In this document: in pieces, positions 12,201 through 48,319 of the stretch
How positions within the stretch are numbered: position 1 is the first letter of the stretch
Layout: the number at the start of each line of letters is the position of its first letter
Assembly: GCA_050575255.1 (NCBI GenBank)
Contig: JBNZDD010013725.1
Span: 10,370,221-10,434,220, forward strand
DNA length: 64,000 nt
DNA from: Harriotta raleighana
Lineage: Eukaryota
Reading direction: 5' to 3'
Notes under the pieces: model-generated
Database searches by the model: none
Told to the model about the DNA's origin: nothing
What the model saw: the letters and a program-made list of their open reading frames with translations, nothing else
Translations under genes and position numbers: made by a program

Positions 12201-15158
12201 CCAGCTCATTGCTTCACCACTATCAAGCACGCTTGAATGCTACCCTGTGTATAGTACCAACATTAAGCATGTTGGTATTGTATCATACTTTCTTGATCAA
12301 TCCCTGGCAATGAGGTACCCAAGAGGGGGAAAAAAAGCTATTGGATAAAAGGGCAAATTTAATTTATTGCGTAATCACTCCTGAATTTGTAGAAGTTGGT
12401 TGGGTAAATGTACCTGAAGTCAGTGATTAGCATTAAGAATCAAAATAGCTACTTTTAAAACTTAATATAGAACAATTCAACCTAATATTTACGTACAGTA
12501 CTGTCTGGAGCTCCATGTATAATTCTTAATAAACTAAGAAAAAAAAACACTGAAACATACAAGGCTTGAACGATTCCTTGATCACAGGTTTACTCCTATT
12601 TTGATTCATACAAATGTAGCAGATAAATCACGTGACCACTTAGAGACCACGTTTTTTTTTGTACAAAATGAACAGCTTATCTAGTCTTTTCCTTAAGGCA
12701 ATGGCATATCCCGAGACATGATTCCACAAGCTTCTGTAGAGTTCTCCATTACTTGACCAAAGTGATCATAATTCATGTGGAAGCCTAGACAGTGAATATT
12801 GACAGGCTATTCAACCAAGCAAGACAACTCGCTAAGCCTGATGCCATCTTGATCTTATGTCCACAAAACCATACTGTTCACAAGGGATCCCATCAATGAC
12901 TAGTCATTACTAGCTGATTTCCCCAGGGTGCTAAGGTCACTTTCAACTCCCCCAACCAATTCAACATAAACCACAAAATCAAACTATTGCTACCTTTATT
13001 CACTAAGCAATTGAGAGAACACTGTAAATGATTCTGACGAGCTAATGAGCACTGTACCTGTTCTGTGAAGTTGCAACGTAATAGTGAACATAGTGAACAA
13101 AGTGCTACGTGATGCGACTGCCTAGAATAGAGCGCAAAGAGCATCAACAAGAAACATGAGAACAGAAAAAACAGAAGTAAAAGAGGCCCACATTATTAGC
13201 TGGGAACGTGAAGACAAAATACAAACAGAGAAAAACGCCAAACAGTAAGCATAACCTACAATCAAAGTACTCACTGTTCAATCAGCCAACATGATAGCTT
13301 ACAAATATGCTAAGCATTATGTTGTTTAACATCCCACAAGAATGATGGGAGGTAAATACATCCTCAATCTTAAGCTTTGTCATGTAAAGACAATAGCCAA
13401 TAAATATAAATCTAAGCCTCATATAGATTAAGATGCATTTCAAGCTGCAGCAAATATATACTCCAATTAAATGAAAAATGCCATGTGTTATATACTTTCT
13501 TTTATTAAGGGGACTCTTCAAAATTCACCTGTGATTTTAAAAATATTTGAGAAGCAATATCTTGCCTATTCTGAGATATCAAAAGTTCCAGTTAATAAAA
13601 GATGTTAATATAGTTTCCAGATTAAATTTTACTCAGGGCTCCAATTGACAATACAATAGCACTAAACAGCAAAGCTAGTTTCCAAATTAAATGGGTGTTC
13701 ATGAGAGGTTCAGTTCTCTGCCTATAAAATATACAGTCACTACATTATACAGTATATTCTGTGAAGCAGTTTAAGATGCTTCAATGATAAGGTACTATAT
13801 CCAAATTTATTAAGCGGGGAGCAGAAGAATAGAGAATATTGAAGTTTGACAAGCCTCAGTATTTTATGGCAAGCTTTCAACTAAACTGTACATTTTTGAT
13901 CAATCTGCATTGGAATTTCAGAGCTGCACTGTTCAAAACAAGAGCATGATCCAGTATAATTATTTTAACTATACTAAATTTTCTTTAAAATCTTTACTGT
14001 TCAAATAGCTTGTAAATCTCAACATCACATTATTTTCTCAGACAAACATCACTGATGATAAAGCCTGACATCACAAGCAACATGAGCAAATCTAACCTTT
14101 TTTTGTTAAAAGGAAGCTATAATCATTTACCAAAATAAAATTAATCTGAACGATAGCATAGCACAATTCAGATGAATGTTTTAAATTTATTGAAATTGAA
14201 AATCTATACTAACCTTCAAAATATCATGACTCATCAACAAAATGGCTAAATACATTTTAATTATTTTTTACGTTTAACTAACGGTTTATAAATACACTAT
14301 ACATATACCTATTAATCATAATACCTCTATCCACAAAATAATACAACGTCAACATGTTGGAAATCAAGAAAAAAAAACTCTCGGCGACAGAAGATTTGTA
14401 TATTGTGCAGTTCAGCTGGTTGAAAATAGTCTTGACTAATTTTGCATTTAAAAAATCAAGCGTTAACATCGAATGAGGCGACAATTTGCGTCTTCAATAC
14501 CCGATCTACATGCGAGGAGACGCGTGGAGGAGCAAAATCGATGAAAAAAACGAAACATGGGAACAGATTAAATGCGCAACGCTGCGAGAGNGACTCGTCC
14601 CCTCTCTCCCACCTTTCAAATCCCACCTGAAAATTTTCCTCTTTGACTGTGCTCCCAGCCAGCCCTCCCCCCCCCCCCCCCCCCCATATTGGCAGCACGT
14701 TGTGAAGAACTGGAAACGGTGATTCGCGCTGGACAGGGCCCCGATGCGGGCAGCCACAGGAGGAGGGCCGGGAGCGGGGGCCGAGGTGGGGAAAGGGAGC
14801 AAATTTACCGCCAGGGATAATGCAGCAGGAACCCGCCGAAAGCTATAAGAACCGCGATCAAGTAACGAGCAAATAAAATGCGCCTGAGGACGGGAGAGAG
14901 GTGCAACTGATTCACCGCTCCTCTCCCCTCCCTTCCCTCCAGCCCTCGGGTAGGCCTGCCTCCGCCCGCCGACACCATTTCTCGCTCGCTCGGGGAGAAA
15001 AAGAAGCAGCGTTGGCGTATCCCAGGCCGAGGCTCCACCGACACACGTACCGGCCTGGCCATTCAGAAACAGCCCCTCACGTCCAGCCGCGGCCTCCGCC
15101 AGCCCCGCCACCGGCTGCCGGCGCCGCAATGTTTGATTTGTATTCCGTCTCCCCTCAC

Positions 15159-26804: not shown

Positions 26805-29800
26805 CTGCAGCAAGCAGACGTACAATTATACAATCACAAAACCACATTTTGGCACATTCAGAGAGCAATCTGCAAATTGCAGTGACACCTAGACTGGTGA
26901 GATGGTAAAGAAGCATATTAGAATGTTATAATGCTCTGGTCAACTTTTAAAAATAAATCGCAGGACTTCTCTGGTTAAAATAATAATAAGATTTAATCTG
27001 ATCGCCTGCTGATAATTCAGCCAAATTCTCAATTCGAGAATTTTCCCCCAGACTCCTGCTGTTTAAAGAATGTTCTCAACACAGATCTTGTTGGCTGATC
27101 TTCAATTCATCAATTTTATAAGCTGAAAGAAACGTGATACGAATGCTTCAAACCACAAAATGGGCTGTACTTTTTTCCAAAAAAACTGAAAATTATTTTG
27201 GGACAGCTTCAATCCTGTAACCATGAATCACAGTTTCATGCAAGATTATCTTGAGGAATTTTCAAAGCCACATTTACCCAAATTATGCAGGGTCAGTGAT
27301 TCTATTGCACAACATTGAGGAACTTCCATATGCATTTGAGTTTTTTTTAAATAATAGGGTTAGATGTCATGTATCCCGGCATTAGTAGCTGTAAGTAGGA
27401 TTTTGCAACCACTCATCACCCACTGCCCAATTCATTAAGTATCCCAAACATGCTTCTCTACCTGAGAAAAATAAATGTGAGAGGTAAATAATTCATCAAG
27501 GTGAATAACTCTTTCATCAACTGCCACTAATCTTAGATATTAATAGTAGAAACCTACAGGACCACCTGGCTGAGCACTGGTTCATTTACAGCACAAGCCT
27601 ACAGTTTTCCCACGCGTCTGACACTAAAAAAATCCCGCTTCCAGGTCATCTGTTTGCTGGTGTTGGCTTCCTGCAAGCTTCCAGAAAGCTTTATTTATCA
27701 GCATTTCCTGCAAACTATGCTTGTGCGCTAGAAACAAGAAACGAATGCTCCGATCACATAACGAGTAATCGGTTGGCACTAATTTTACTTACTGTGCAGG
27801 AAGTGACGCTGATTCTCTTGAATTTTATTTTGCTGAATTTTATTTTGAAAAATATCATTTGATTTCAGAGTATAAACCAGGGGGTTGCCAAATGAACATT
27901 GATGGTGCTTTCACATTATTAAATTCTACACAATTAAGTTTGAGGTTTTATTTTTAAATAATATCAATCTCAGCTCAAAGAACCCAGGCTTTTATTTGAA
28001 ACTCATTTTCATTACTAACACCATCTAGAATTCCAAACCCCGATGAATCATTTAAACTCTGAATTTCAGGTTACAAAGAAATAAATCTGATAAACTGATC
28101 CATCTCAAAAGGGAGAAATGTCTGATATAATCACCATGTAAAATATGGTAATCATATCCTAGTTTCAATCAAGTTACTTAGACAGTTAGATGAAATAGCT
28201 GAGAAAAAGCCTATGGGATAATTAAATGTTCACACCATATCATAGGCAATTTGTCCCACAACAGATGTATCTTCGCTGGATACAAGGTGATACCTGATTA
28301 CATATCATCCCAAGAATTTACAAAACTGGTATCACCAGCTCTCTCGTAGAGAACTGGGGAAGTCAGGGATGAGCATGTACCAAAATCAAACCAATTGAGC
28401 CAAATCAGTTTAACAATGTAATTTGTACACTGATTCAACCTAAATACTGGATTTTTTTTGTGGGTTGGTTGGGAACGTTGAGAGTCAACATTTGGTCAGC
28501 AGACAGCTCCCTGACGAGAAGAAGGAAGGATGAAGGCAATAGAAGGCGAGAGATCCCACATGGAGTATAGGCTTGCTGGAACGATTAGCATGTTGCCATG
28601 CTGTATCATTCTGCATAGCTCTATGTAGTTAAGGGTGGGTTATGAAGCCTCAATGAGGTAGTGTTTGCATCCCTTTAAGGATGGGTCAGAATAGATTTCT
28701 ATCCACTTGCAGGAGCACATAGCCTGGATGTCTTAGTTGCAGATATCAAGTACCACAATTTGACTTGCATCCTTGGGATGCATCATATTTGCTATCCAAA
28801 ATTTGAATTGGACCCAAACGCCCATTCCAAATGTCTGCAATAGTATTCGCCAAAGATTAAGAGTGTTCCCAACCCACCAAGAAGACTATATTCAATTCTT
28901 TGGCTTTGTCTCAGCCACAGTTCAGCTTTAAATCAATGAATTATGTTACAAGATTTTTTAATCATTTGATTATCGATCGTAAGGTTAGTGTTTGATTAAT
29001 GCCATGAGGTTTTTTTTTAAAATCCAAAAGACTTTCAGAATTCCTATTCAGTGAATGGTGGGAAAATGAAAATGTTGGGTTACAGAAGCAAAAGTTACCA
29101 CAGTGTGTACCTGCAGGAAAAACACAAGCGCGAGGGGCAAATAATCAATTCTCACTGGTGCCAACAACCAGTACCTAGAAACAGACAAAATAAGGTCATG
29201 TTTCTAATATTCAAGTGAAAAGACACACTTTAAGAACAGCCTTGGAAAGGTTTCATGGGACATGTATTATTACCAAAAGACTACTGCATTACTTGTTCGA
29301 GAATTCCTATATTATAATTCTTGCATTTGAATTCTTAGCTCCAAACTGCTCCATATTTGTGCGATGCACTGAGCTTGAGTTGACATCATTAAAATTTGAC
29401 TGGAGCTGATACCAGGTCAAGCATCTCTCTGCTGCTGTGAACAGAACAATTCTGCTGACAGCCCAGGAAGCGGTAACATCTCCTCTTTAATAACTAAAAA
29501 CATTGCCTTTTAATGTTGAAACAGCATTTTAGGCACTCTGCTTAAAGTCAGGGGGTTTCCTTCAAAACATTCACAGCAGCAATGAAAAACAACTGTGTAA
29601 ATAACTCAAAATGTTACTTCAAATATCTGCATCTCTTCGTCCACAAATTAACAGTCAATTCACTTTACAGTATATTCTGTAACATGCTTTGGGATGTCTC
29701 GAAGATGTGACAAAAGTGCTATATCAAATGCAAGGATTATTATTAGGATTATTATCTTTACATTTTATACCTTATAAGAAAAATATTTTGTGTTCATGAA

Positions 29801-30831
29801 AATGATTTTAGAATGGATCAATTTCTGCTCTGGTCAGGTATCTTTGAATGTTTTCCATTGAAGTTGGACTATTTTCCAGAAGGGATATGATACCTTTGTC
29901 CTTTGACAGGAATTTATAGGCACAAAGCCACCCCGCCCCCCCTCACCCCCCATCACATTTTGCTTACACACGCTAAGTTCTTACATTCAAAATTTGGTCA
30001 AAAGCTGTAAATATTTGTGAAATAATATTCGTTGACAGGATTACCCAGTGCAGTTAAAAGTACTGAGATTACAAGTGTAATTGAATAATAATAACCTTTG
30101 CATTTGAGGTATTGTCTTCGAGATGTCTCAAAGAGCTTCACAGAACATATTATAAAGTGATTTGACTGTATATTTTGTGGGAGAAACTTGGCAGCTAATT
30201 ACGCACAGTAGTGTCCCACAGAAAATCATGAATTGAGTAACCAAATTATTATTTGCAGAAGTAAATAAATCATATTAAAATAATATTTTTTTCTAAATTA
30301 TTTTTTATTTAATGTTTTTCCATTGAAGATAATTATCATAAATTATTATTTTTAGAAAATGTAATATCAATGTAATATATTGTACTAAGAAATTTGTCAC
30401 TATACAAATGTAATGTTGTTCATCAAAATAGTTCATATTAAATATTGACTATTCAAGTGTAATTAAACATTTCAGAATGATTCATTAATCAAATGAAGAG
30501 CTTGGGTATTTTCCTTCTAAACGTGTAGTTACAATTTAGTCCAAACAAATGGTGAACGTCATGGAGAATCATATTGGAGGTTATTGTGAACAAAGGATTG
30601 TACTTGTGTTTCAAATGACCACTTCTTTTAACACATTATTCCAAATCAACTCCGAATAGTACTTTTTTTTTGTCACAAAATGAGAAAGCAGAAGGGAAGA
30701 AATCACGAGTGTGCAAGCACAGGAAGAAAATAAACTTATGGCTGCATTCATAAATATTTCAGCCATAATCCTTGTGAAAGGGCATTGATCCCACCACCAA
30801 GCTTCGTGACACAAAATAAAGCAAAACTTAC

Positions 30832-30951
30832 AAATGTATCCTCATTTTGGTTACTGCTTTCTACTGGCATGCTTGTGGAACTGCTTCCTGTAGGCACAAC
30901 ACTGCTAGTGCTATGTATCAGCATGCTTTTATCCTGAGTGGGAGACATGCT
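30832..30951 (-). CDS. KIF13A: KIF13A exon (120 nt, symmetric, likely cassette)
   Basis: SMSPTQDKS..VVPTGSSSTSMPVESSNQNEDTF resembles human SMPPPQAH..IVPSGSNGSSMPVEHNS; ttgcag|AGC and TTT|gtaagt. Confidence 0.85.
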
Positions 30952-31908
30952 CTGCAATGGGCCAGACACACAACAAACAGCACAATGTCATACCACTGGT
31001 GAGTTAATCACTCTACAAAGCATGCAGTTAGTTGATGCAGACATAGTGCTGAGGTCACACGCATCAATCTTCCGTACACAAACACTGGTGGTTTACACAT
31101 CAAACAGCCAATTCAGGCAGAAAACGACACATGCAATTTTAATATAAAACAGTCGTTATACAGGTGATCATTACTGTTGGCTCTAAATAAAAATATATTA
31201 ATATTTATGATCAAAGTATTTTTGCGCATGCATTTTACATACAGATCACTATTTAAATCCATCATCCACTTTCTCTATCACCAGACAAGCTTTTTTTTTT
31301 TTGGGGGGGGAGGGGGGCGAGGTTAGGTGCTTATTACTGCATGCGCAGTAAAAAGGAGCCAGTGTTCACATCTGGCCATTTGGGCTGCTTTTCTGGTGCA
31401 GTTTGAATGATGAATATATTCAAATAGTACAGCTGCTACTGGTAACACATGGGACTTTACAGCTCCCTGGCCTATTGAGTTGTACTACATACTGCACTCA
31501 ACGGTGTGGTGTTCACATTTCTAATGAAGGAGTTCACTAAATTATTCTTATTATTGTCACCAATGATTAGTTAGGAGGTCAGAAAATGTGCCACTAATTT
31601 GGAGGATTATTTTTTTTTGTGCAATGAAGAATCCTGAAAGGACATTAGCATTCTCCTGTAGTCTGGTTTGTCTCAGCCCGGTGAACCATAAGACAGAGGA
31701 ATTCTCGTCAGTCAACCACGCTTCCTACTGACCAAGACGATTCATTGACAGAACCTGAGACCTCAAAGGTCTCACATGTTCCAGTTGTGGATGCAAGTGG
31801 CTGATTCAGAAAGCCTCAGAAGGAATGGGAACAAGCTCTGAATCCTCGAATCCGGGACAGAAGGAATCTTTTTGGAGAGTTTGGGATTCCCAATTTGGGA
31901 AAATTACT

Positions 31909-32301
31909 AAAATAATAATAATCCTTGCATTTGCTACAGCGCTTTTCACATCTTCTAGACGTCTCAAAGTGCTTCACAGAATATACTGCAAAGTGAATTG
32001 ACTGTATATTTGTGGGCGAAACGCGGCAGCCAATTCCACACAGCAGTGTCCCACAAACAAGTCATGGATTGAAATGACCAATTTTATTATTGTGGGTTTT
32101 TTTGGAGGGATTATTATTAGTCATGTGGAGTAAGGAAACTTGCCCAAGGTTTCGCCCTGACCTGAAGAGTGCCTTGGGACATTCTCCCAATTTGACAGGT
32201 GCTCTATAAATGTAATTTTGTTGTTGTTGACCTGCCTGGATTCAAACACAGGTCTCACGCTTGTAAGATGAGTGCTCTAACCACTGAGCTACAGGACTCC
32301 A
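31909..32301 (-). mobile_element. SINE with a short L2 3' end inserted into it
   Basis: Full SINE in reverse orientation; L2 tail at 32165-32227. Confidence 0.82.
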
Positions 32302-33122
32302 TAAATCATATGGGTGAGGTGAGGAAATGGAAAAAAAATAAAAGTGATTATAGTACTTTTCTTATCCTTTACGAGCATCCTTTATTCTCCAAACTAAATT
32401 ATTAAACGGATAAAATATTGTTGATCACATTCCAAATTTCCCACCCTCCTGCTCTGAGTCTTTCCATTCAACGGTGTTAAAAGATCATAGCTATCCAGAG
32501 ACCAGGGAAAAGGGACAGTCCGACTTTATTTTCAACTCCTGAGCCAGCCCTTGCATGCTGCTTCACAGAATATCAACCGAGATAAATTGGGACCCATTAT
32601 TAGCTGCACTCAAAACTCTGATCTCTTTGATTTTAGGTGTAGAACACATACAAATCAAGTCAATTTTGAGCTCTGCACCTTATATGACTGCTCTCATAGC
32701 AGGTTTCAGAAGGACGACCAGCTCATAATCAACCCTCCACCCAACTGTCCTCTTTAATGAGGTTTGCATTCAAACTCTCCTTTAATTACTATCACGAAGC
32801 AACAAAGGATTTTGTTTAATCTCCGAAGGCTGTTTTAATAGTGCAATAGTGCTTGGGGACAGAGCTCTTTATATATGGTAATGAGGAGAAAGTCACTGTG
32901 CAAATATAATTTTGTTATCGTTGTTGTTGTTGTAATGCATCAGGAGCAGTAATAGAGGCAGAAGACCTTGGGCCTAACCATTAAGCCATGGTCAAAACTG
33001 TTCTGAAATGTTGCAGATTGTTTCCGTAAAGGTGAGGTAAGCAGCTTTGTGTCAAACGGCTCTCCTCCTCTAAGGTGCAACATTGACTTGGGTGCTTCTC
33101 AGCAGAGTAAAGTGGGTTTTAC

Positions 33123-33274
33123 CTCATTTCCCAGGAGCGGCTTGGACTCAATGAGCTGCTTGCCTTTCCGTTCCTCTTTCACGGGCATTAATGATTTCAG
33201 GAACTTCGGTGGCTGAGGAGAAAAGGCTTTCAGGGGACTCCCCATGAACGAGTGAGGGCTTTCTGGTGTGGAAC
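33123..33274 (-). CDS. KIF13A: KIF13A exon
   Basis: STPESPHSFMGSPLKAFSPQPPKFLKSLMPVKEE matches human SPFKAFSPQPPKFFKPLMPVKEE; GT-AG, phase 1 to 0. Confidence 0.93.
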
Positions 33275-33907
33275 CTGAGGGTGGTGGGGGGAGAAACAGC
33301 ACATCTCAGAAAGACAAACAACTCATGATAAAACATTATCAAATATCCCCTTTAATAATTCTAACATTCAAACTCTTTAACTACAGATGTCTTCTATTTT
33401 TTTTCAGATATCTAGCATTTCAGGATCTTGCTCATCGTCTACCTATGATTTTAGTATTGCTTAGTCACTAAGATCACTAAGCAACAAAGCAGTTTTTAAA
33501 TGGTGAAGTTTTTTAAAAAAAAGATGTGGTCATTAGTTGGCTTGGTGACGGAGCTCATTACGTAAGATGGGAAAAAAAGGCAAGGGTAAACTTTCCTGCA
33601 TTAAGTAAACATTAACGAGAGCACTATCAGAGCAAAGAATGGCATCACCTCCTCCTATTCAATGCCGAACATTGGTATGATAAATATATTTATTGCCTTT
33701 CCCCCATTCCAATTCTCTCCTCCTGAAGGAGTTACAGGCAGCACCACAACCCATTATTGTTCATCCTTATACATTGTCCATGTGTGCACTTTCCAGCCAG
33801 GGTCTCTGGATATAGATTGTAGGCATGTTATTAATACACACACATTTCTCCCAATGCTTTTTCCTTTCCAATTACGACATTGCTGAACCACACAGCTCGA
33901 CAATTAC

Positions 33908-34019
33908 CTGCAGTATCCTTCACTCTGCGTGGGGAATCTTTTGGTAGGGTTGCATACCAGGAGCAATCCTGAGTATTAGACAGACAGTCAGAAATGTCGT
34001 GATGACTTTCCGAACGACC
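33908..34019 (-). CDS. KIF13A: KIF13A exon
   Basis: GRSESHHDISDCLSNTQDCSWYATLPKDSPRR resembles human GWPENQLDMSD..YGTLPRDSPRR; gtag|GGT and CAG|gtaatt; 112 nt. Confidence 0.9.
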
Positions 34020-34805
34020 CTACGACGAATAAATAAAGCAAAGCTGTTTTTGGATCATATTTGCAAAACTAGGTATGAATTATTAAACACATCTTGTAAC
34101 AAAAATGTCTTGTGATGACCTGAGTACACAATCTGTCACAACAGATACTGAAGGCATCCCGAAATGACATGGAAAGATGAATCAATATGTCAACCCTCGC
34201 CAGTGAAGTTGGTTTTGCTAATTTGACACCATCAAAGTTTACAACAAGTCAGAACACCAATGTTAAAGGGACAGGATTATGTTTTTTAGGCTTTAAAAGA
34301 CTTCTTAGATGAGATCTTACAGATATAGTGGAATTCCACTATAACACATTTATGATGAAATATACAGTCAATTCACTTTATACTGTAGTATATTCTGTGA
34401 AATGCTTTGAGACGACTTAAAGACATATATCAAATGCAAGAATTATTATTATTATTTCTTAAGTGGGTCTGTTTCTAGTTGGATTGGTTATGGTCCCTGA
34501 CATTTGATCTTCTATTTGATACACTCATCAATGCTTCAACATGCCCAAATAATCCAAATTGTGTGTTTCAGTTCCATTGGTGCTTCAAAAGCCTGGTGGC
34601 ATGCAGAAAATGACATCAAGTCCTACCCTCTGTGAAGACCACTGTATAAATTCAAGTTGTTGTTATTGGATGACATCCTGACCCAGAAGTCAGCCATTTA
34701 ATCTTTAATCTGCCAATCAGCTATTTGAAGCACCAACAGAGTGAATGGACACTGAATGTAGAAACAATGACCGACTATATTTACAATAAGTTTATAAAAA
34801 CACAC

Positions 34806-34856
34806 CCTGTACTCTTCATCCTCATATCCAGAGACATCTAATCGGCTACTGGAGAC
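34806..34856 (-). CDS. KIF13A: KIF13A exon
   Basis: VSSSRLDVSGYEDEEYR resembles human VSSSRPDLSGFDEDDK; ttgtag|GTC and AGG|gtgtgt; 51 nt. Confidence 0.9.
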
Positions 34857-34965
34857 CTACAAGAAGAGAAACCAAGAGATAAGATTAGCGATTGCTAATT
34901 AAATGTGTTTAATTCATAATCTACCTGGATATAAGGTCCAGCAGTACCATTGTAAACATATTATA

Positions 34966-35840
34966 CAGTAAAACCTCGTTTATCCTTGACTCGATGAACC
35001 GGAAAACCCGTTCAACCGCCACCTCCAAAAAAAGTCCCGATTCGATTAATCGTAAGTTATCCGACAAATAGTGATTGCGTTTAATGAATGGACTGTTACA
35101 AGCGAGTGCAGTACTTGCGAATGCAGTACTTGCAGTTGGTCACTAGGCATATCTAAACTGGTGAGACGTTCAGAGCCCTGGAGCAGCAGCCATTTTTACA
35201 GGTGAGAGAGGGACACACACAGATAGAGGGACACCCACACACAAATAGAGAGACAGACACAGATAGAGAGACACACACCCAGAGACACAGAGAGAGAGAG
35301 ACACACTCAGATACGGAGAGGGAGGGAGACACAGAGAGACAGAGACACACACAGACACAGAGAGAGAAAGAGGGGGAGAGAGAGAAAGAGACACAGACAG
35401 ACTTATGCACACAGACAAAGAGACAGAGACAGAGAGAGACACACACCTAGACACACAAGAGAGAGAGAGAAAGACACGCACACACACAGAGGGAGAGAGA
35501 GAGACAGAGAGAGAAAAAGTCGCGGTTCTTCTTACCTTGTTCGTTTTTATCTGTTAATGGAAACTCACGCACAGTGATGCTTGTCTAAGCATCACAACAC
35601 TGAAGTTGCTACATTGGTCAATTTGACCTAAAATAGGTTGGGTGAGGGCTGCGATTGCAAAGTTAAGTATAAATAAAAGTACTAATACAATATTCTGTTG
35701 TTATTTAGTCTATTATTAATATAGTATGTGTTAAAATATTTGTTTTTAATTTAAAAAAAAAAAAAATCAATTCAACCGGAAAAACGGTTTAACCGCCACT
35801 GGCCAGGTCCTGTGGGTGACGGATAAACAAGGTTTTACTG
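34966..35840. mobile_element. Tigger/pogo-like MITE with internal GA/CA microsatellite
   Basis: TA|cagtaaaacctcgtttatcc ... ggataaacaaggttttactg|TA; no transposase ORF. Confidence 0.85.
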
Positions 35841-36009
35841 TACTTGTAATATCCACTGGTTTTCACAAATGATTGCAGTTACATATAGAGTTAGATATGA
35901 TCCAAAATAAGTTCACAAAAACTCACACACAAAATTGTTACATGTACTGCATGAGTTAGATAAGGGTCATGGTCTTGGTTGGACTCCTTCAGGCAAGCTC
36001 GATACTGTG

Positions 36010-42115: not shown

Positions 42116-42432
42116 TTTGCCTCCCCATCCCCAAAAGGATCAAGTTCAGGATTCCTTTAATTCCCTCCACAGACTCACCCCACCCCGACTCCATGAGCTC
42201 CTCAATATTGGAATCTGAATCTACTGAACATTAAGAAGCTTCACTGCACAATATGTTGTAGTGCTTCCTATGGGTGTCTACTGTGTATTGCAGAAAACTA
42301 TAGAGATACGAAATCCGTCAGGCTGCGCTTGTGATTTTGAAAGGTGTCTGTATTGTTCGTTGGTAAAAAAAATATTTTGGAAAACAAGGCTTTGTCTTCT
42401 TACATTCTCCCCAGATATGAATTTTACTTGTC

Positions 42433-43647
42433 TCAATGCTGAAAACTAGAAAGGAACGATTTCTTCTCCTCCCCAGCAGAATGCTCCCTCTTTGCCTTGC
42501 ATTCTTTGGCCATGTGTCCTTCCTTTCCGCAGAGGTGGCAGATGTGCAGCCCTTCACATCTGTGTGGTCGCGTGGCTCTCTTGTCCGGTTTTTCTTTCCC
42601 TTTGGCACCACTCCTGGAAGTGGGAGGTGCTGGAGGTGGAGCTGGATTTTCCCCACAACCCATCATAAACTGCAGTTTCTCTAGTCTATCAAATTGATCC
42701 TTCTGGTTCAGAGCAAGTTTTTTCACTAAGAGAACGAGCTCACTTATTACAGGGTCTCCTACTGATTGGGGTTCAACCTCCGGCAGCTCAAGCACATCTC
42801 CCAAGCACTGATGACTATTCTGTGCATGCACCACTGTCTGGCCCTGATAGGGTAGTTTGAGTGTCTCTTTCTTCCGACTTGATGACGCTTGACTTTCACA
42901 TGCTGGATGTTCCGTCTTTGTTGGCCGAGTCTTGCCCACCGTCAGTTTTGGTTTTACAGATGGAGGTTTCTGATTGACTTCATACTCAGGCACTTCGCTC
43001 ATAAATTGCGCAGTCAGTTTGAAATCCTTGCGTGCAGATGAACGTTTGCTCTTCACTCTCGCTTTAAAAGTCCTTAACACCGAATGCACAGCATACAAGG
43101 TTTTCATTTCATTTGGCTGCTTAAATTTTTCATAAAACTCAGCCGCGGGATCCAGTGGTAGTTCAGAGCCTATGTATTCTGCTCGGAGTCTCTCAAAAAC
43201 CCCCTCGGGACTTTGCTCCTTTCGTGGCAAATTATGAACCAATATCTTTGCTCTGCCTCCGAGACGGTGCATGACAGTTGCAAATTGGAGCGTTGTAGAC
43301 ATTGAGCTAGTGTCCAGGAACCATTGCATATCCTTTATCCAGTCTTCAACGTCAAGTCTATAATCTGGGGCTCCAGTGAACACTGGCACACTCATTAACT
43401 GATTGTAGGGGATCACTGTAGTACACGGTGTCAATGATAAAGCGTCTGATTGACAGCTGGCCCCTGGAGATGACTGCTTAGAAGTGGATTGGCTGTCAAT
43501 TATTGATGGCATCCAATGGACTTCAGTTATGTGACTGCTTGCCTCCACTGGCTCAGCAAGCTTCTTTCTCTGAGGGATAGACACGAGTAAAGCATTCAAC
43601 TGGTTTATCAGCCAGGGTATCTGGATATGATGGCCTGGGTTTTCCAT
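42433..43647 (-). CDS. Intact Ty3/gypsy-derived Gag-like (PNMA/Arc-type capsid) protein with CCHC zinc knuckle, 404 aa, nested in a KIF13A intron
   Basis: Capsid-like motifs VPVFTG..DVEDWIKDM..RLGGRAKILV.NLP..PEGVFERLRAEY..AEFYEKFKQPNE..YA and KDFKLTAQFM; a coiled-coil-like segment (ISELVLLVKKLALNQKDQFDRLEKLQ); CHLCGKEGHMAKEC = CX2CX4HX4C. Open over 1215 nt in non-repetitive sequence. Confidence 0.85.
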   Translation of the reverse strand: MENPGHHIQIPWLINQLNALLVSIPQRKKLAEPVEASSHITEVHWMPSIIDSQSTSKQSSPGASCQSDALSLTPCTTVIPYNQLMSVPVFTGAPDYRLDVEDWIKDMQWFLDTSSMSTTLQFATVMHRLGGRAKILVHNLPRKEQSPEGVFERLRAEYIGSELPLDPAAEFYEKFKQPNEMKTLYAVHSVLRTFKARVKSKRSSARKDFKLTAQFMSEVPEYEVNQKPPSVKPKLTVGKTRPTKTEHPACESQASSSRKKETLKLPYQGQTVVHAQNSHQCLGDVLELPEVEPQSVGDPVISELVLLVKKLALNQKDQFDRLEKLQFMMGCGENPAPPPAPPTSRSGAKGKEKPDKRATRPHRCEGLHICHLCGKEGHMAKECKAKREHSAGEEKKSFLSSFQH

Positions 43648-45704
43648 CTACAAAAATCATGCTCTGTATTGTAACTGACGTACAACAATTGATAATAGGT
43701 TCTGCTAGTTTCCCTATATGTTTCCAACTGAAGGCTATTCCTGACTCCTTCACCCTCTCCTCAATCCCCAGCACAGATACAATGGGCTGACTGGACTCCT
43801 ATAGTGTAAGCTTCCATCTCTACTTCTAGTTTACACAACTACCAACCACACCTTTCGATCTCTCTGTTAAATACTGTTAACTGCTTATAAACGTATAAGC
43901 AAACACATGCAGGTATTTACACAGGGTGAATCAGAAGCCCTTACTCAAGAGTTTTTAATCGTCATTTATGTACTAAAAGTCAACATTTGTAGAGCGAGTG
44001 CAGCGATTACGGGAAATATCTTTCATTGCTTTTACTGTGACATTTTTGTACCAAGTTGATATGTGTAAATGTCTACAAAACATGCAATTTGAACATCTCA
44101 TATAGACCTATGAGTAGGGACTTTTGATTCAACCTGTAGATGGGTGTCTTCTTGACATAAAAAGCGCTATACAAATGTAATTTTGTTGCTGTTGTAATTT
44201 GCAATGTTTCCGAATAGATTTCTTAATAAATGTGTAATTACCAATTTTTCATAAGTTATTGTACTACTAAAAATAGGCAGACTTAATAAATTTAATAATG
44301 ACAGATTTCATAAGACATAGGTTAATGCATACCAAACGTTAAAGGCTATTTCTAAATTAAAAGCATATCTTTATATTACAGGCATGAGCTAAAAAGCAGT
44401 CATCTTGTAAGGACACAGTTTTATTGCTCTTTCCTTAAACAACGGTCTTGTCAGTGAGTAATAAATCACATACTTAACTGCTCACCCACAGCAATGAACG
44501 CTTTCATTATTTTTACTGTACAAAGGCCAAGGTGAATGCTTCTATTTAAGATCAATGTTAGCATTGGGAAATGGGCTGCTCCTTATTTCAAGCATCTAGT
44601 GGCAGCACTAGGTGTCTCCAGGTCAGGTACAGGACTGTAGGATTTAGGAGAAAGCTGCTTCTATTCCACGAGGACAGCATTTTATGTGAAAGATCAGCAG
44701 AGCGCTTAATACTGTACCATGTGATACGCTGCGGCCGCTCTGAATTCAAGACAGTTTTTTGCTGCAATTCCATGGCCTAGTTGAATGTGCCAGCCTGTGA
44801 TAGCTAACAGTCAAAGAGAACTTCCATCCAAGGTATCTGGGCTAGAGTGGAACCCAGCTACCAAAGGTGTCTGCACTTGATCTCACTCAGTCTTTCCCCC
44901 ATTTCTGCTCTCTTACCAAACCACCCTTCAGGTCTAAGCCTGAAACATAATGATATCCACGTAAATTGAACACCATGTGATGCCACATTTAATTCCCATT
45001 CTGTGTATCAAAGCGAAACATGTGATAGTTGCTAGACTTCAACCAAAGTCTTTAGCAAGAACATTAAAACACTGCGTATGTTTTAAAGATTTTGATCCAA
45101 CGTTTATATGTTTAAGAAACCAAACATCATAAAGAGCAGGTAGGTATCTGTTGCTGCAGCTCAGCAGAGAGAATGACAGAAGGTGTAATTTTGAGCTTGT
45201 GTAAGCCATGTGCAAACTGAATTACAGATGTACTTAATTATATAAATCAACCAATAAACAGCTTTCCGTGTCTCCTAATATTTCTGCATTGGTTGTAACT
45301 GCATAATTAAACACACTTGCAATTGGCTCTGTGCACATGCTTTACACATGGTTAACAAACCTAAGAATTAAGACTCAAAAGGAGAGCGAATAATAGCTGA
45401 ACAAACTGATTGTTTTCTAAAAATAAGCAGAAAACATTAAAAGCTACAACCAAAACACTTAAATATTCTGTGACAATGCTATCACTATTCTACACACAAC
45501 AAACATTATGTACCAAACCCATGCAACATGACCACATTGGCATGTTTTACAATAAATGGAAAGCATAGACAATTTATTGTAACACTTGGTGGGTGGGAGA
45601 CATGTGGAGTTAATTTTTTTTAAAACGGTATCATTTGTATTTTCATTGCTGCAGAAATAGAGATTCAATACATGGGTTGTGCAAATCAAAAACATATGTT
45701 CATA

Positions 45705-46528
45705 CAGTAAAACCCCGTTTATCCGGCACCCACGGGCTCTGGCCAGTGGCGATTAAACGTTTTTTTCTGGTTGAATGGATTTAAAAATATATATTTTCTG
45801 AATATAATTAAAAATTATTTTAACACATACCATATTAATAATAGACTAAATAATAACAGAATATTCTATTAGTATATTATTATTTATACTTAACTTTGCA
45901 ATCACTGCACTGATTCGACGGAGGTAAAACAAAATGTGACTTGAAAAACCAATGAGTTCAGACCTAATGGCTAGCATACACACACACACACACACATAGA
46001 CAGACACACACAGACCCTCAAAGATATTCAGTCTGAATCCATCATGTAAATTCTGTCCACAATCCTCACCACCCCCCTCCCTTTCCTCTCTCTCCCTGCC
46101 TCTCTCTCTCTCTCTCTCTGCATCAATCTGCCTGCCATTACTCTCTCTCTCTCTCGCTCTATTTTGCTTTCCCTCATCTCAGCCTCAGAGAGAGAGAGAC
46201 TGAGAGAGTGATTGTGATTGGGAGAGAGAGAGAGAGAGAGAGAGACTGTGATTGGGGTAGAGAGAGAGACTGCGAGAGAGTCTGAGAGAGAGACTGTGAT
46301 TGGGGGAGAGAGAGAGAGAGACACGCCCCCTTTGGAGCCCATGCTCCAACTCATGCGAAAGAGGTATTAAAAAAACGCGACTTTTAAAAAGACCTGGAAA
46401 GAGTTTAGACCCAACATTAAATGCGTCACCGGATAACTTCCGGTTAATCAAATCGGGACTTTTTTTTGGAGATGGCAGTTGAACGGATTTTCAGATTATT
46501 CGAGTCACGGATAAACAAGGTTTTACTA
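45705..46528. mobile_element. Tigger/pogo-like MITE of the same family, inverted relative to 34966-35840
   Basis: TA|cagtaaaaccccgtttatcc ... ggataaacaaggttttacta|TA. Subterminal blocks are the reverse complement of those in the 34966 copy; internal (GA)/(CT) repeats. Confidence 0.85.
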
Positions 46529-46969
46529 TAGTTGGTTTGATACCTTTTGGTGGATGTGCCTGTGCCTGTATGTAAGGTACAAACAACCATTTGGTTATGA
46601 AACCATTTTGTTTTAATGCATCTAGAGATGGAAACTTGACTAGTATTTGTGATCAGAAGCTTTTTGTTTAAATCAAATCAGTCAGAACACAGTGAATACA
46701 TGACAAGTTGGAAATTAAAGCAGCTAGTTCCTGTTCATGCATGCATCAAGCCAAGGCCAGCATGGAGTCAGAGCTGAAGAACACAGGCATATAAATATAT
46801 GTATACAGGTATATAGTATGTATGTGAAAGAGCACTGAAATCAAAGCACTAACATTCATCTGCACATCACACTGCCAGCCAACCCACATTAAGAAAAAAA
46901 ATTGATCTCAATTAACAGGTCTAGACCAGAAAACCATCTAAATAAATCAACAGTTATGAATTTGGTCCA

Positions 46970-47240: not shown

Positions 47241-48241
47241 TTGTTCTTTACATTGCCTCTACAGTGATAATCAGCTAAAGATTTGACACACTGGTTTTCA
47301 CCCTAGGTTTAATGAGCATGCGTTAATCATCAAAACAAATTTGTGCCCAATATTTCGTTACATCTTTCACCAGCAAAGTGGAACCTTATCTCTTTCATAC
47401 CTCGGCAAAGAGGGCAATTAACTATTTGGGAAAAAAATTCTATAGTCTGAAAGTTACGCCAACAAAATCCCAAATTCAGCAAAATAGCAGGTCTATTTAC
47501 TGCCTGCCCTTATTTGGGAGTTACTATTATCAAGAACCAGTTCGTTAGGTAGAAAACCTTTAGTCACTTTTATGGTAGAGGTTCTCTGCTAAAAGCACTA
47601 GCTCAAGACAATAGTAAGAGACTGACAAACCGTAGAGTGGTCATTGTAGGAATAGACTTTATAGTTTTCATGGGTGAACTAACAGCAAAAATTCAGATAG
47701 AAAATTCTGGGAAAGCAGAATAAACAGTAAAACTTTGTAAACTAAAAGTCAAGATTCTAATTTATCACTAAAATACTCACAATTTTAACTCTACAGTTGC
47801 TTTACTTTTTCAACAATTGGTTCAAAACTATACCAAAAAATGAAATGTGGAGGTTAGTTTAAAAATATATATATATACTGTTTATATATATTTTTAAACA
47901 GGGTGCTCTTTGTTTTTGGGGGAAAAAAGATGCAGTTCATTCAATTAACTAGTTTACACTGGAGCCCTATAATTTAAGAGGCTACATATGCATTCAAAAA
48001 TAGTGATATTATAGTTGAACATGCTTTATACTGGAGTACTTCCAACACCTCAGAAATCAGGGTGAAATCCTGGAGTATTCCAATGAGAATCACATCAGCT
48101 TGCAAACATTTGATTTTAAAAAATGTAAGTAAACATCAATATTGATTTGTTTTTGTGATGCCACAATCTGAATTGATATTATTCACACAGAATGGTGCAC
48201 TGTAGGGTCTGTGAAGCTGATTTGTGTTAATTGGTACGTAC

Positions 48242-48319
48242 ATGGTGGACATTAGGTGTGCTGATACTCCTCTTCATATGCCTTCCTTTAGATGAAAGTG
48301 CTTCTTTGACTGTGACTGC
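48242..48319 (-). CDS. KIF13A: KIF13A exon
   Basis: AVTVKEALSSKGRHMKRSISTPNVHH resembles human AVTVKEALSTKARHIRRSLSTPNVHN; cttag|GCA and CAT|gtacgt; phase 0/0. Confidence 0.95.

Follow-up and report, generated by a model that had tools for sequence, protein, structure and literature searches.

What is a long, uninterrupted, Gag-like reading frame doing within an intron of a kinesin gene? The question is raised by the window, the whole stretch of 64,000 nucleotides from the chimaera Harriotta raleighana that was analysed here. In this DNA a stop-free frame of 404 codons runs from 43647 down to 42433 on the minus strand, which is the strand of KIF13A, flanked by same-strand KIF13A exons and with no open frame on the plus strand of the same interval. 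A preliminary description had proposed there, in the sense orientation of KIF13A, a solitary domesticated capsid gene, and its reading of the frame itself stands: all the Gag motifs that it quoted are present, and its CCHC knuckle is recovered as a zf-CCHC match (Pfam PF00098) above cut-off, at residues 370-384 of the 404-codon frame (E 6.6e-5). Pfam capsid families gave no match to the frame at E≤1. Two low-depth DNA runs with the same species label, X1 and X2, cover most of the frame without gaps, so that it is not an artefact of assembly. They show five differences from the window in the pieces listed, and the reads of both are DNA-like, continuing across the splice acceptor described below. 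The window's positions 42536 and 42587 display non-synonymous differences, X1 departing at both and X2 at one, with the residue as in relatives; this is either polymorphism or low-depth error.

The frame is not multi-copy as an active or recent LTR retrotransposon is: the 1.1 Gb genome holds one copy by DNA search and one by protein search (one match among nine candidates scored), and the nearest free Gag, used as a genome query, matches the KIF13A locus only (one match among four scored), all three counts being lower bounds. In the rest of the intron, protease, reverse transcriptase, RNase H and integrase families have no match among the 64 stop-free minus-strand frames of at least 40 residues, and the 20 largest of 50 repeat families include no pair of LTR-like direct repeats on either side of the frame. 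The copy-number check asked for by the preliminary description thus returned a single locus, and its failure to see pol or a pair of LTRs was well founded.

Where the frame comes from is suggested by a sequence profile, a capsid fold and a zinc knuckle, which together indicate a Ty3/gypsy-type gag. When 1.84 billion representatives were scanned in full with HMMER, 75 matched at E≤0.001. Those examined were, besides two orthologues and a few knuckle-only rows, proteins with a Gag layout at 25-45% identity. Scanned at E≤0.05, 25 of these Gag-like relatives matched zf-CCHC (23/25), PNMA (15/25) or Retrotrans_gag (7/25), mostly below curated cut-offs. There is one named member, from medaka; one cluster comprises 14 members spread over many contigs, and 19 of the 25 carry at or near their end, as judged by eye, an LN motif that we take to be the gag-pol frameshift site. 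These three features, Gag layout, many contigs and LN ends, are the reason why the relatives are labelled here as gypsy elements, a label given from the proteins alone. A profile built from the 25 aligns to residues 73-388 of the frame with probability 100. Taken alone, the frame was a poor query: a word-based homologue search kept none of 2707 candidates, and a sequence search of the PDB returned knuckles only. The PNMA family (PF14893) has no match at E≤1 in the window protein, and none in the proteins P0002, P0003, P0093, P0094 and P0096. The donor is nevertheless likely to come from the same broad gypsy group as PNMA, in view of the Pfam PNMA matches (E≤0.05) of 15 among the 25 free relatives. 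P0047 is a 481-residue protein in which a CAP-Gly domain (E 5e-17) is joined to a PNMA-like Gag (E 0.002); it is either a gene-calling chimera or a second fusion between a cytoskeletal domain and Gag.

The nearest relatives point to a host for this frame. The best HMMER match is a protein of Callorhinchus milii named Kinesin family member 13A (A0A4W3IBK6, 1708 residues), whose last 378 residues align with residues 27-404 of the frame at 80% identity. A region search then yields Gag-tailed KIF13A isoforms in three sharks, Pristiophorus japonicus (X1/X2 isoforms), Mustelus asterias (X4 isoform) and Chiloscyllium plagiosum (X6 isoform), whose tails are 45-50% identical to that of the window. In all four species the isoforms, which are computed gene models, share one junction, TPNVHH followed by R/KKKLAE, and they lie in RefSeq and UniRef as plain KIF13A. 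The window has the matching signals, with a phase-0 donor (48242) and an in-frame acceptor (43569) that would join the transposon-derived frame to the host exons. Homology to relatives begins at residue 27, which is where the acceptor lies. The ATG at 43647, 78 bases upstream of the acceptor and proposed earlier as the start of the gene, therefore appears incidental; it is interrupted by a one-base insertion in a related organism (organism C, run X10). At the other end, organism C and organism B (run X5) read through the TGA of the window to the later D-K-stop. The Gag frame is hence most likely an alternative last exon of KIF13A, which would replace the CAP-Gly tail, and not the free-standing nested gene first proposed: four isoforms, one junction and in-frame splice sites argue for the fusion. 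The features are collected in Table 1.

Table 1. Features of the KIF13A locus and of its Gag-derived exon (window coordinates; residues numbered along the 404-codon frame).
Feature	Position	Strand	Basis or remark
Last shared KIF13A exon, ending ...TPNVHH; phase-0 GT donor at 48241	48242..48319	-	tblastn with C. milii KIF13A, 26/26 residues identical
5' part of the 404-codon frame	43570..43647	-	Likely intron, open by chance; no match to relatives; ATG disrupted in X10
Pyrimidine tract and CAG acceptor of the Gag exon (CAG 43572-43570), phase 0	43570..43590	-	Sequence; junction of four annotated isoforms
Gag-derived exon, coding part: 378 codons and stop, residues 27-404	42433..43569	-	80% identity to C. 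milii tail; single copy
Conserved 24-residue segment after the junction, residues 27-50	43498..43569	-	14/24 invariant in five tails (window and the four named species)
Capsid N-lobe, residues 83-163, retained	43159..43401	-	19/29 Gag-conserved columns; AlphaFold; PNMA2 fold match
Capsid C-lobe remnant, residues 164-235, apparently decayed	42943..43158	-	2-residue deletion; model without helices after residue 215
Coiled-coil-like segment, residues 297-329	42661..42759	-	17/33 invariant in five tails; coiled coil by eye
CCHC zinc knuckle, residues 370-383	42499..42540	-	PF00098
Stop TGA, then in-frame D-K-TAA, the end point of the shark tails	42424..42435	-	Sequence comparison
Canonical KIF13A 3' exons, starting near 34856, 34019, 33290, 30951, 26800 and 22775 and ending in CAP-Gly	22498..34856	-	CAP-Gly halves by Pfam; skipped if the Gag exon is used

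The original isoform seems to have been retained beside the new one. The acceptor at 34856 is the usual partner of the 48242 donor, and the canonical exons are open from there to the end of CAP-Gly, the middle ones having been recognised by what we take to be short motifs of human KIF13A. The Gag-exon acceptor scores 1.9 against 7.3 for the canonical one and ranks 271 of 1401 AG sites (by a crude 11-site matrix, in which known sites score 1.5-10.4), its pyrimidine content placing it in the top 3% of 783 YAG sites. Because this acceptor is weak, the Gag-tailed isoform would probably be minor or tissue-restricted. Candidate poly(A) hexamers are found at 42428, 42161 and 40206. As for the host gene, its CAP-Gly end, split over two exons (22498-22800 and 25608-26825, minus strand), suggested KIF13B, an identity that was rejected since the exons of the window match proteins named KIF13A. 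In the accessible part of a review, CAP-Gly is given as a hallmark of KIF13B that human KIF13A lacks (PMC9081326); the domain may be ancestral to both genes and have been lost later.

What remains of the Gag within the exon is uneven. The N-lobe of the capsid is the best preserved part. An AlphaFold model of residues 76-245 has pLDDT values of 91-97 over residues 86-155, and it leaned on free Gags, which made up 43 of the 49 rows of its alignment; a prediction from the single sequence had a pLDDT of 42, too low for use. Compared with 48,161 solved chains, the N-lobe model is closest to the PNMA2 capsid (Z 10.0, rmsd 4.8, 81 residues aligned), then to Arc (Z 9.1), and the best 20 chains are all retroelement capsids. 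Foldseek returned no match at E≤0.001, its top rows being capsids. For a helical domain such Z values are modest, and it is the uniformity of the list, together with the sequence profile, that carries the capsid assignment. The comparison with PNMA, Arc and zf-CCHC models that had been advised at the outset thus gave a knuckle and an N-lobe fold, and nothing for PF14893.

The C-lobe tells a different story. Columns were taken as Gag-conserved when at least 20 of the 25 free Gags agreed on them. By this count the N-lobe of host tails retains 19-23 of its 29, the beginning of the C-lobe 7-10 of 17, the distal C-lobe 4-7 of 18 and the knuckle 5-6 of 7. The window itself has 10/17 and then 5/18 over residues 164-255, where free Gags keep on average 16.8 of the 18 distal columns. 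The distal motifs are lost in all six host tails, and the AlphaFold model has one long helix and coil where the C-lobe part within residues 76-245 was expected. Divergence from typical gypsy motifs around the MHR-like region, which the preliminary description held for a mark of an old exapted gene, is real, and it appears to mark the decay of the C-lobe, speaking against an Arc- or PNMA2-like particle. Closed capsid shells need both lobes; with the C-lobe decayed, the tail is unlikely, as far as the model goes, to build whole capsids. The knuckle, by contrast with the C-lobe, has its C-x2-C-x4-H-x4-C intact in five of the six host tails, the exception being P0003. The segment that follows the junction, residues 27-50, has no match in free Gags; it is as conserved as the capsid lobe, and it is possibly a binding motif or a splicing enhancer.

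How old, then, is the capture? A tree of the capsid region, comprising the six host tails (window, C. milii, three sharks and P0003) and 25 free Gags, places the host tails in one clade (100/100). Within it, the window and C. milii lie on one side, the three sharks and P0003 on the other, matching the host tree. Because the host tails form a single clade that follows host phylogeny, the capture appears to predate the split between holocephalans and elasmobranchs, which the accessible part of one source puts at about 420 Ma (PMC6238376). The position within KIF13A, shared by four named species, and this host-matching tree are what is expected of a co-opted gene. A shark-based region search gave the same three clusters among 1673 candidates, with no ray or bony-fish fusion among the cluster representatives of 970-3087 residues that it covered. 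The search for an orthologous tail in other chimaeras, sharks and rays was therefore rewarded in C. milii and three sharks, and in no ray among the representatives searched. P0003, a 308-residue protein call on a contig of 1504 bases, is an elasmobranch-like orthologue on a long branch, with a shortened spacer and the last knuckle cysteine lost; in this one lineage the tail may be decaying or changing role. Copy counts, shark and chimaera orthologues and the tree, which contains no PNMA sequence, jointly bear out the view that this is an old, single-copy, pol-less gag domestication, common to chondrichthyans and probably independent of mammalian PNMA. A survey of 2,011 proteomes lists, in its accessible text, seven animal gag co-options, the oldest at about 352 Ma, and none in cartilaginous fishes, although C. 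milii and the whale shark were included (PMC8321522). At about 420 Ma, the KIF13A capture is older than any co-option given there.

An exon of such age would hardly stay open without selection. The five complete tails are all open over 378-384 codons, and their ends lie no more than three residues apart. In neutral simulations, run before indels are considered, 7% of the copies were still open at 0.07 substitutions per site, against none of 2000 at 0.3. Organism C, about 7% diverged, has no gap over 1130 covered exon bases, against at least 10 indel events (one of them inferred from offsets) over 1346 flanking bases (P 0.002); in organism B the spanning contig has 37 gap letters, the position of 25 of them being unplaced. 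Between the window and each shark, identity is 60-66% over the post-junction segment, N-lobe, coil and knuckle, compared with 27-33% over the spacers (P ~1e-8), these regions having been drawn from Gag anatomy and the alignment, hence not fully blind. Amino acid sequence is under less control. The tail is 45-75% identical where the body of KIF13A is 92-97%, X10 carries substitutions at a like density in the exon (50/742) and in its flanks (73/978, P 0.57), with the N-lobe only slightly lower (11/255, P 0.09), and the in-frame codon changes, among the 40 of 346 rows listed, are six of six non-synonymous. By these comparisons, the frame appears to be protected from indels, with a weak amino acid constraint. 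The signature of selection is thus seen by proxies only, namely a frame kept, indels excluded and domain-wise conservation. That this is an exon of KIF13A maintained by selection is, on the whole, very probable.

Other accounts of the same observations have to be weighed. A neutral or recent transposon fragment without host role would agree with the weak amino acid constraint, yet it fits neither a single copy, nor one gene and one junction in lineages that split about 420 Ma ago, nor a frame open far beyond neutral expectation. Orthology refutes this account, which is extremely improbable; only mis-assigned orthology would revive it. More can be said for a truncating exon, the point of which would be an early end of KIF13A that drops CAP-Gly and the distal tail and escapes decay, the Gag being mostly a tolerated passenger: the near-neutral substitution density and the six non-synonymous codon changes among the rows listed go in this direction. 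Truncation does not need 378 open codons, however, and would explain neither the exclusion of indels nor conservation that tracks the Gag domains, so that we give it very little credence. The free-standing nested gene, with its own promoter and an internal methionine, mis-fused by gene predictors or existing beside the fusion product, deserves slightly more attention. Each tail has an in-frame methionine ahead of the N-lobe, the acceptor is weak, and P0003 was called as a separate protein on its short contig. That methionine, though, is at tail position 8 in the three sharks and 20 in the two chimaeras, hence not common to the tails; conservation sets in precisely at the acceptor, before any methionine, the models of four species share one junction, and the ATG of the window is broken in X10. 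We consider this account improbable.

Just as improbable, in our opinion, is a tail still able to form shells of the capsid kind, whether cleaved off beforehand or studded with motors, and to package RNA in the manner of Arc and PNMA2. The N-lobe fold and the knuckle are indeed kept, and so is part of the C-lobe, with 7-10 of 17 conserved columns at its start and a remnant 47-51% identical between window and sharks. Against this stand the distal C-lobe motifs, gone from all six tails, a model which lacks a C-lobe fold even though it was built on intact Gags, the rest of the intron, which has no protease in any of its 64 frames, and a motor of 1400 residues fused in front. A motor-borne restriction factor is the least unlikely of these alternatives, but unlikely all the same. 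The half capsid would bind related gypsy or retroviral Gag, or particles, and poison their assembly or drag them away (compare Fv1 and yeast Drt2, which have no motor). One lobe kept while the other decayed, and a protein evolving fast within an indel-protected frame, would suit such a role; half of a capsid domain serves yeast as a restriction factor, in the accessible account of that system (PMC10951436), and the nearest free Gag finds nothing but the KIF13A locus in the genome (one of four scored). Drt2, however, uses the C-lobe, that is, the part lost in the KIF13A tail, and with the parent family absent the obvious target is gone, an absence that has many other causes.

The preferred reading remains that the gag exon is spliced as an alternative last exon of KIF13A, yielding a kinesin-3 isoform with a cargo-binding Gag tail that builds no capsid; as a whole, we hold it to be somewhat probable. 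If the exon is indeed a selected part of KIF13A, a tail for RNA or protein cargo, as opposed to a capsid, is reasonably probable. A gypsy-type element would have landed in the sense direction of the gene before holocephalans parted from elasmobranchs, then lost pol and its LTRs, and an in-frame acceptor would have created a new isoform while the old one was kept. In the new isoform, the capsid N-lobe, the coiled-coil-like segment and the CCHC knuckle would stand in place of the CAP-Gly tail. What the Gag exon supplants is the distal tail along with CAP-Gly, whereas motor, FHA and stalk are untouched. With motor, neck, FHA and stalk preserved, the isoform would be expected to dimerise as before and to travel towards microtubule plus ends. 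Its knuckle is predicted to bind single-stranded RNA, and its coil and N-lobe either to cluster tails or to contact a partner, on account of which the isoform would haul cargo of the ribonucleoprotein type. The stalk of human KIF13A binds Rab22A, Rab11A and Rab10 and its tail binds AP-1, according to the accessible part of a review (PMC9081326). The tail would most likely act as a cargo switch, RNA binding and the cargo itself being predicted.

Several known systems share parts of this design. TMPO/LAP2alpha and ZNF451-L2a are the closest in architecture: in the accessible text describing them, the first open frame of a retrotransposon was taken in as a single large 3' exon, used alternatively, so that one isoform has another C-terminal domain and the original isoform persists (PMC4495291). 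Their donor was a DIRS1-like ORF1 without clear retroviral Gag homology and their hosts are nuclear and restricted to mammals, whereas the KIF13A tail has a true capsid lobe and a CCHC knuckle, a motor as host and a far older origin. Lyosin, a fusion isoform of MYL4 and L1 ORF1p, likewise brought a retrotransposon RNA-binding protein into a gene of a motor system, in a non-mammalian lineage and in the Palaeozoic; there, LINE-1 ORF1p sits on a myosin light chain, while here Gag sits on the motor chain itself. Neither KIF13 nor kinesin appears in the accessible text of the Lyosin paper and its 10 supplementary files (PMC12129022). The PNMA family (PNMA2, MOAP1) provides, with PNMA2, the closest solved fold of the N-lobe. 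Its genes stand alone, are of therian or mammalian origin and are dated, in the accessible parts of two sources, to about 160 Ma, far later than the KIF13A capture (PMC8321522, PMC3670739). PNMA2 has both lobes and forms capsids, unlike this fused exon, whose protein does not match PF14893. Arc and dArc are domesticated gypsy capsids too, Arc being the second-best fold match, and Arc stands alone, with both lobes and a tetrapod origin at about 352-370 Ma as given in the same partial sources (PMC8321522, PMC3670739). Capsid-derived modules reused for oligomerisation or restriction are known in the SCAN domain, yeast Drt2 and Fv1, in the available portions of the literature (PMC11011659, PMC10951436). 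Drt2 keeps the C-lobe, as SCAN reportedly does, where the KIF13A tail keeps the N-lobe, and none of the three is known to be fused to a motor. The exon thus works like LAP2alpha, ZNF451-L2a and Lyosin, with the features of a co-opted gag that were looked for, and is not a PNMA or an Arc gene.

To be sure, an open frame of a transposable element as alternative last exon is already known from LAP2alpha, ZNF451 and Lyosin; the novelty is a Gag on a motor. The titles and abstracts listed by searches of a mostly open literature include no paper on a Gag exon of KIF13A or on any motor-Gag fusion. The frame is genuine, of great age and conserved, and most likely serves as an exon that fuses Gag to a kinesin, not as a capsid gene on its own; its function we infer from sequence. 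If this is true, the capture would be a gag domestication older than Arc and SCAN, dated to about 352 Ma in the accessible text of the survey (PMC8321522). The boldest version, a motorised Gag in which a kinesin of cartilaginous fishes with a built-in Gag tail grips RNA or capsid-like particles directly, and which is at the same time the oldest vertebrate capsid domestication known, is one that we put forward tentatively and with some doubt. That the survey of 2,011 proteomes does not list the case is probably due to the Gag being tucked into a minor isoform of a motor of 1,700 residues and having no capsid Pfam match, which points to a blind spot, Gag exons within large host genes. The KIF13A tail further joins two lines of work, since retroelement Gags depend on host motors and both would be here in one chain. 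It also provides a naturally occurring example, amenable to testing, of a kinesin with a predicted RNA-binding tail of retroviral type, and of a capsid N-lobe reused alone.

Two more traits of the locus deserve mention. In the intron, inverted copies of one repeat bracket the Gag exon (34964-35842 and 45703-46530), with arms of 88, 80 and 70 bases that are 79-86% complementary; their pairing in the pre-mRNA could loop out the Gag exon and favour its skipping. Further along, the stretch at 14450-16500 is of low complexity and GC-rich (68% in 15001-16000), with several long overlapping frames; it resembles a CpG island that marks the beginning of an adjacent gene.
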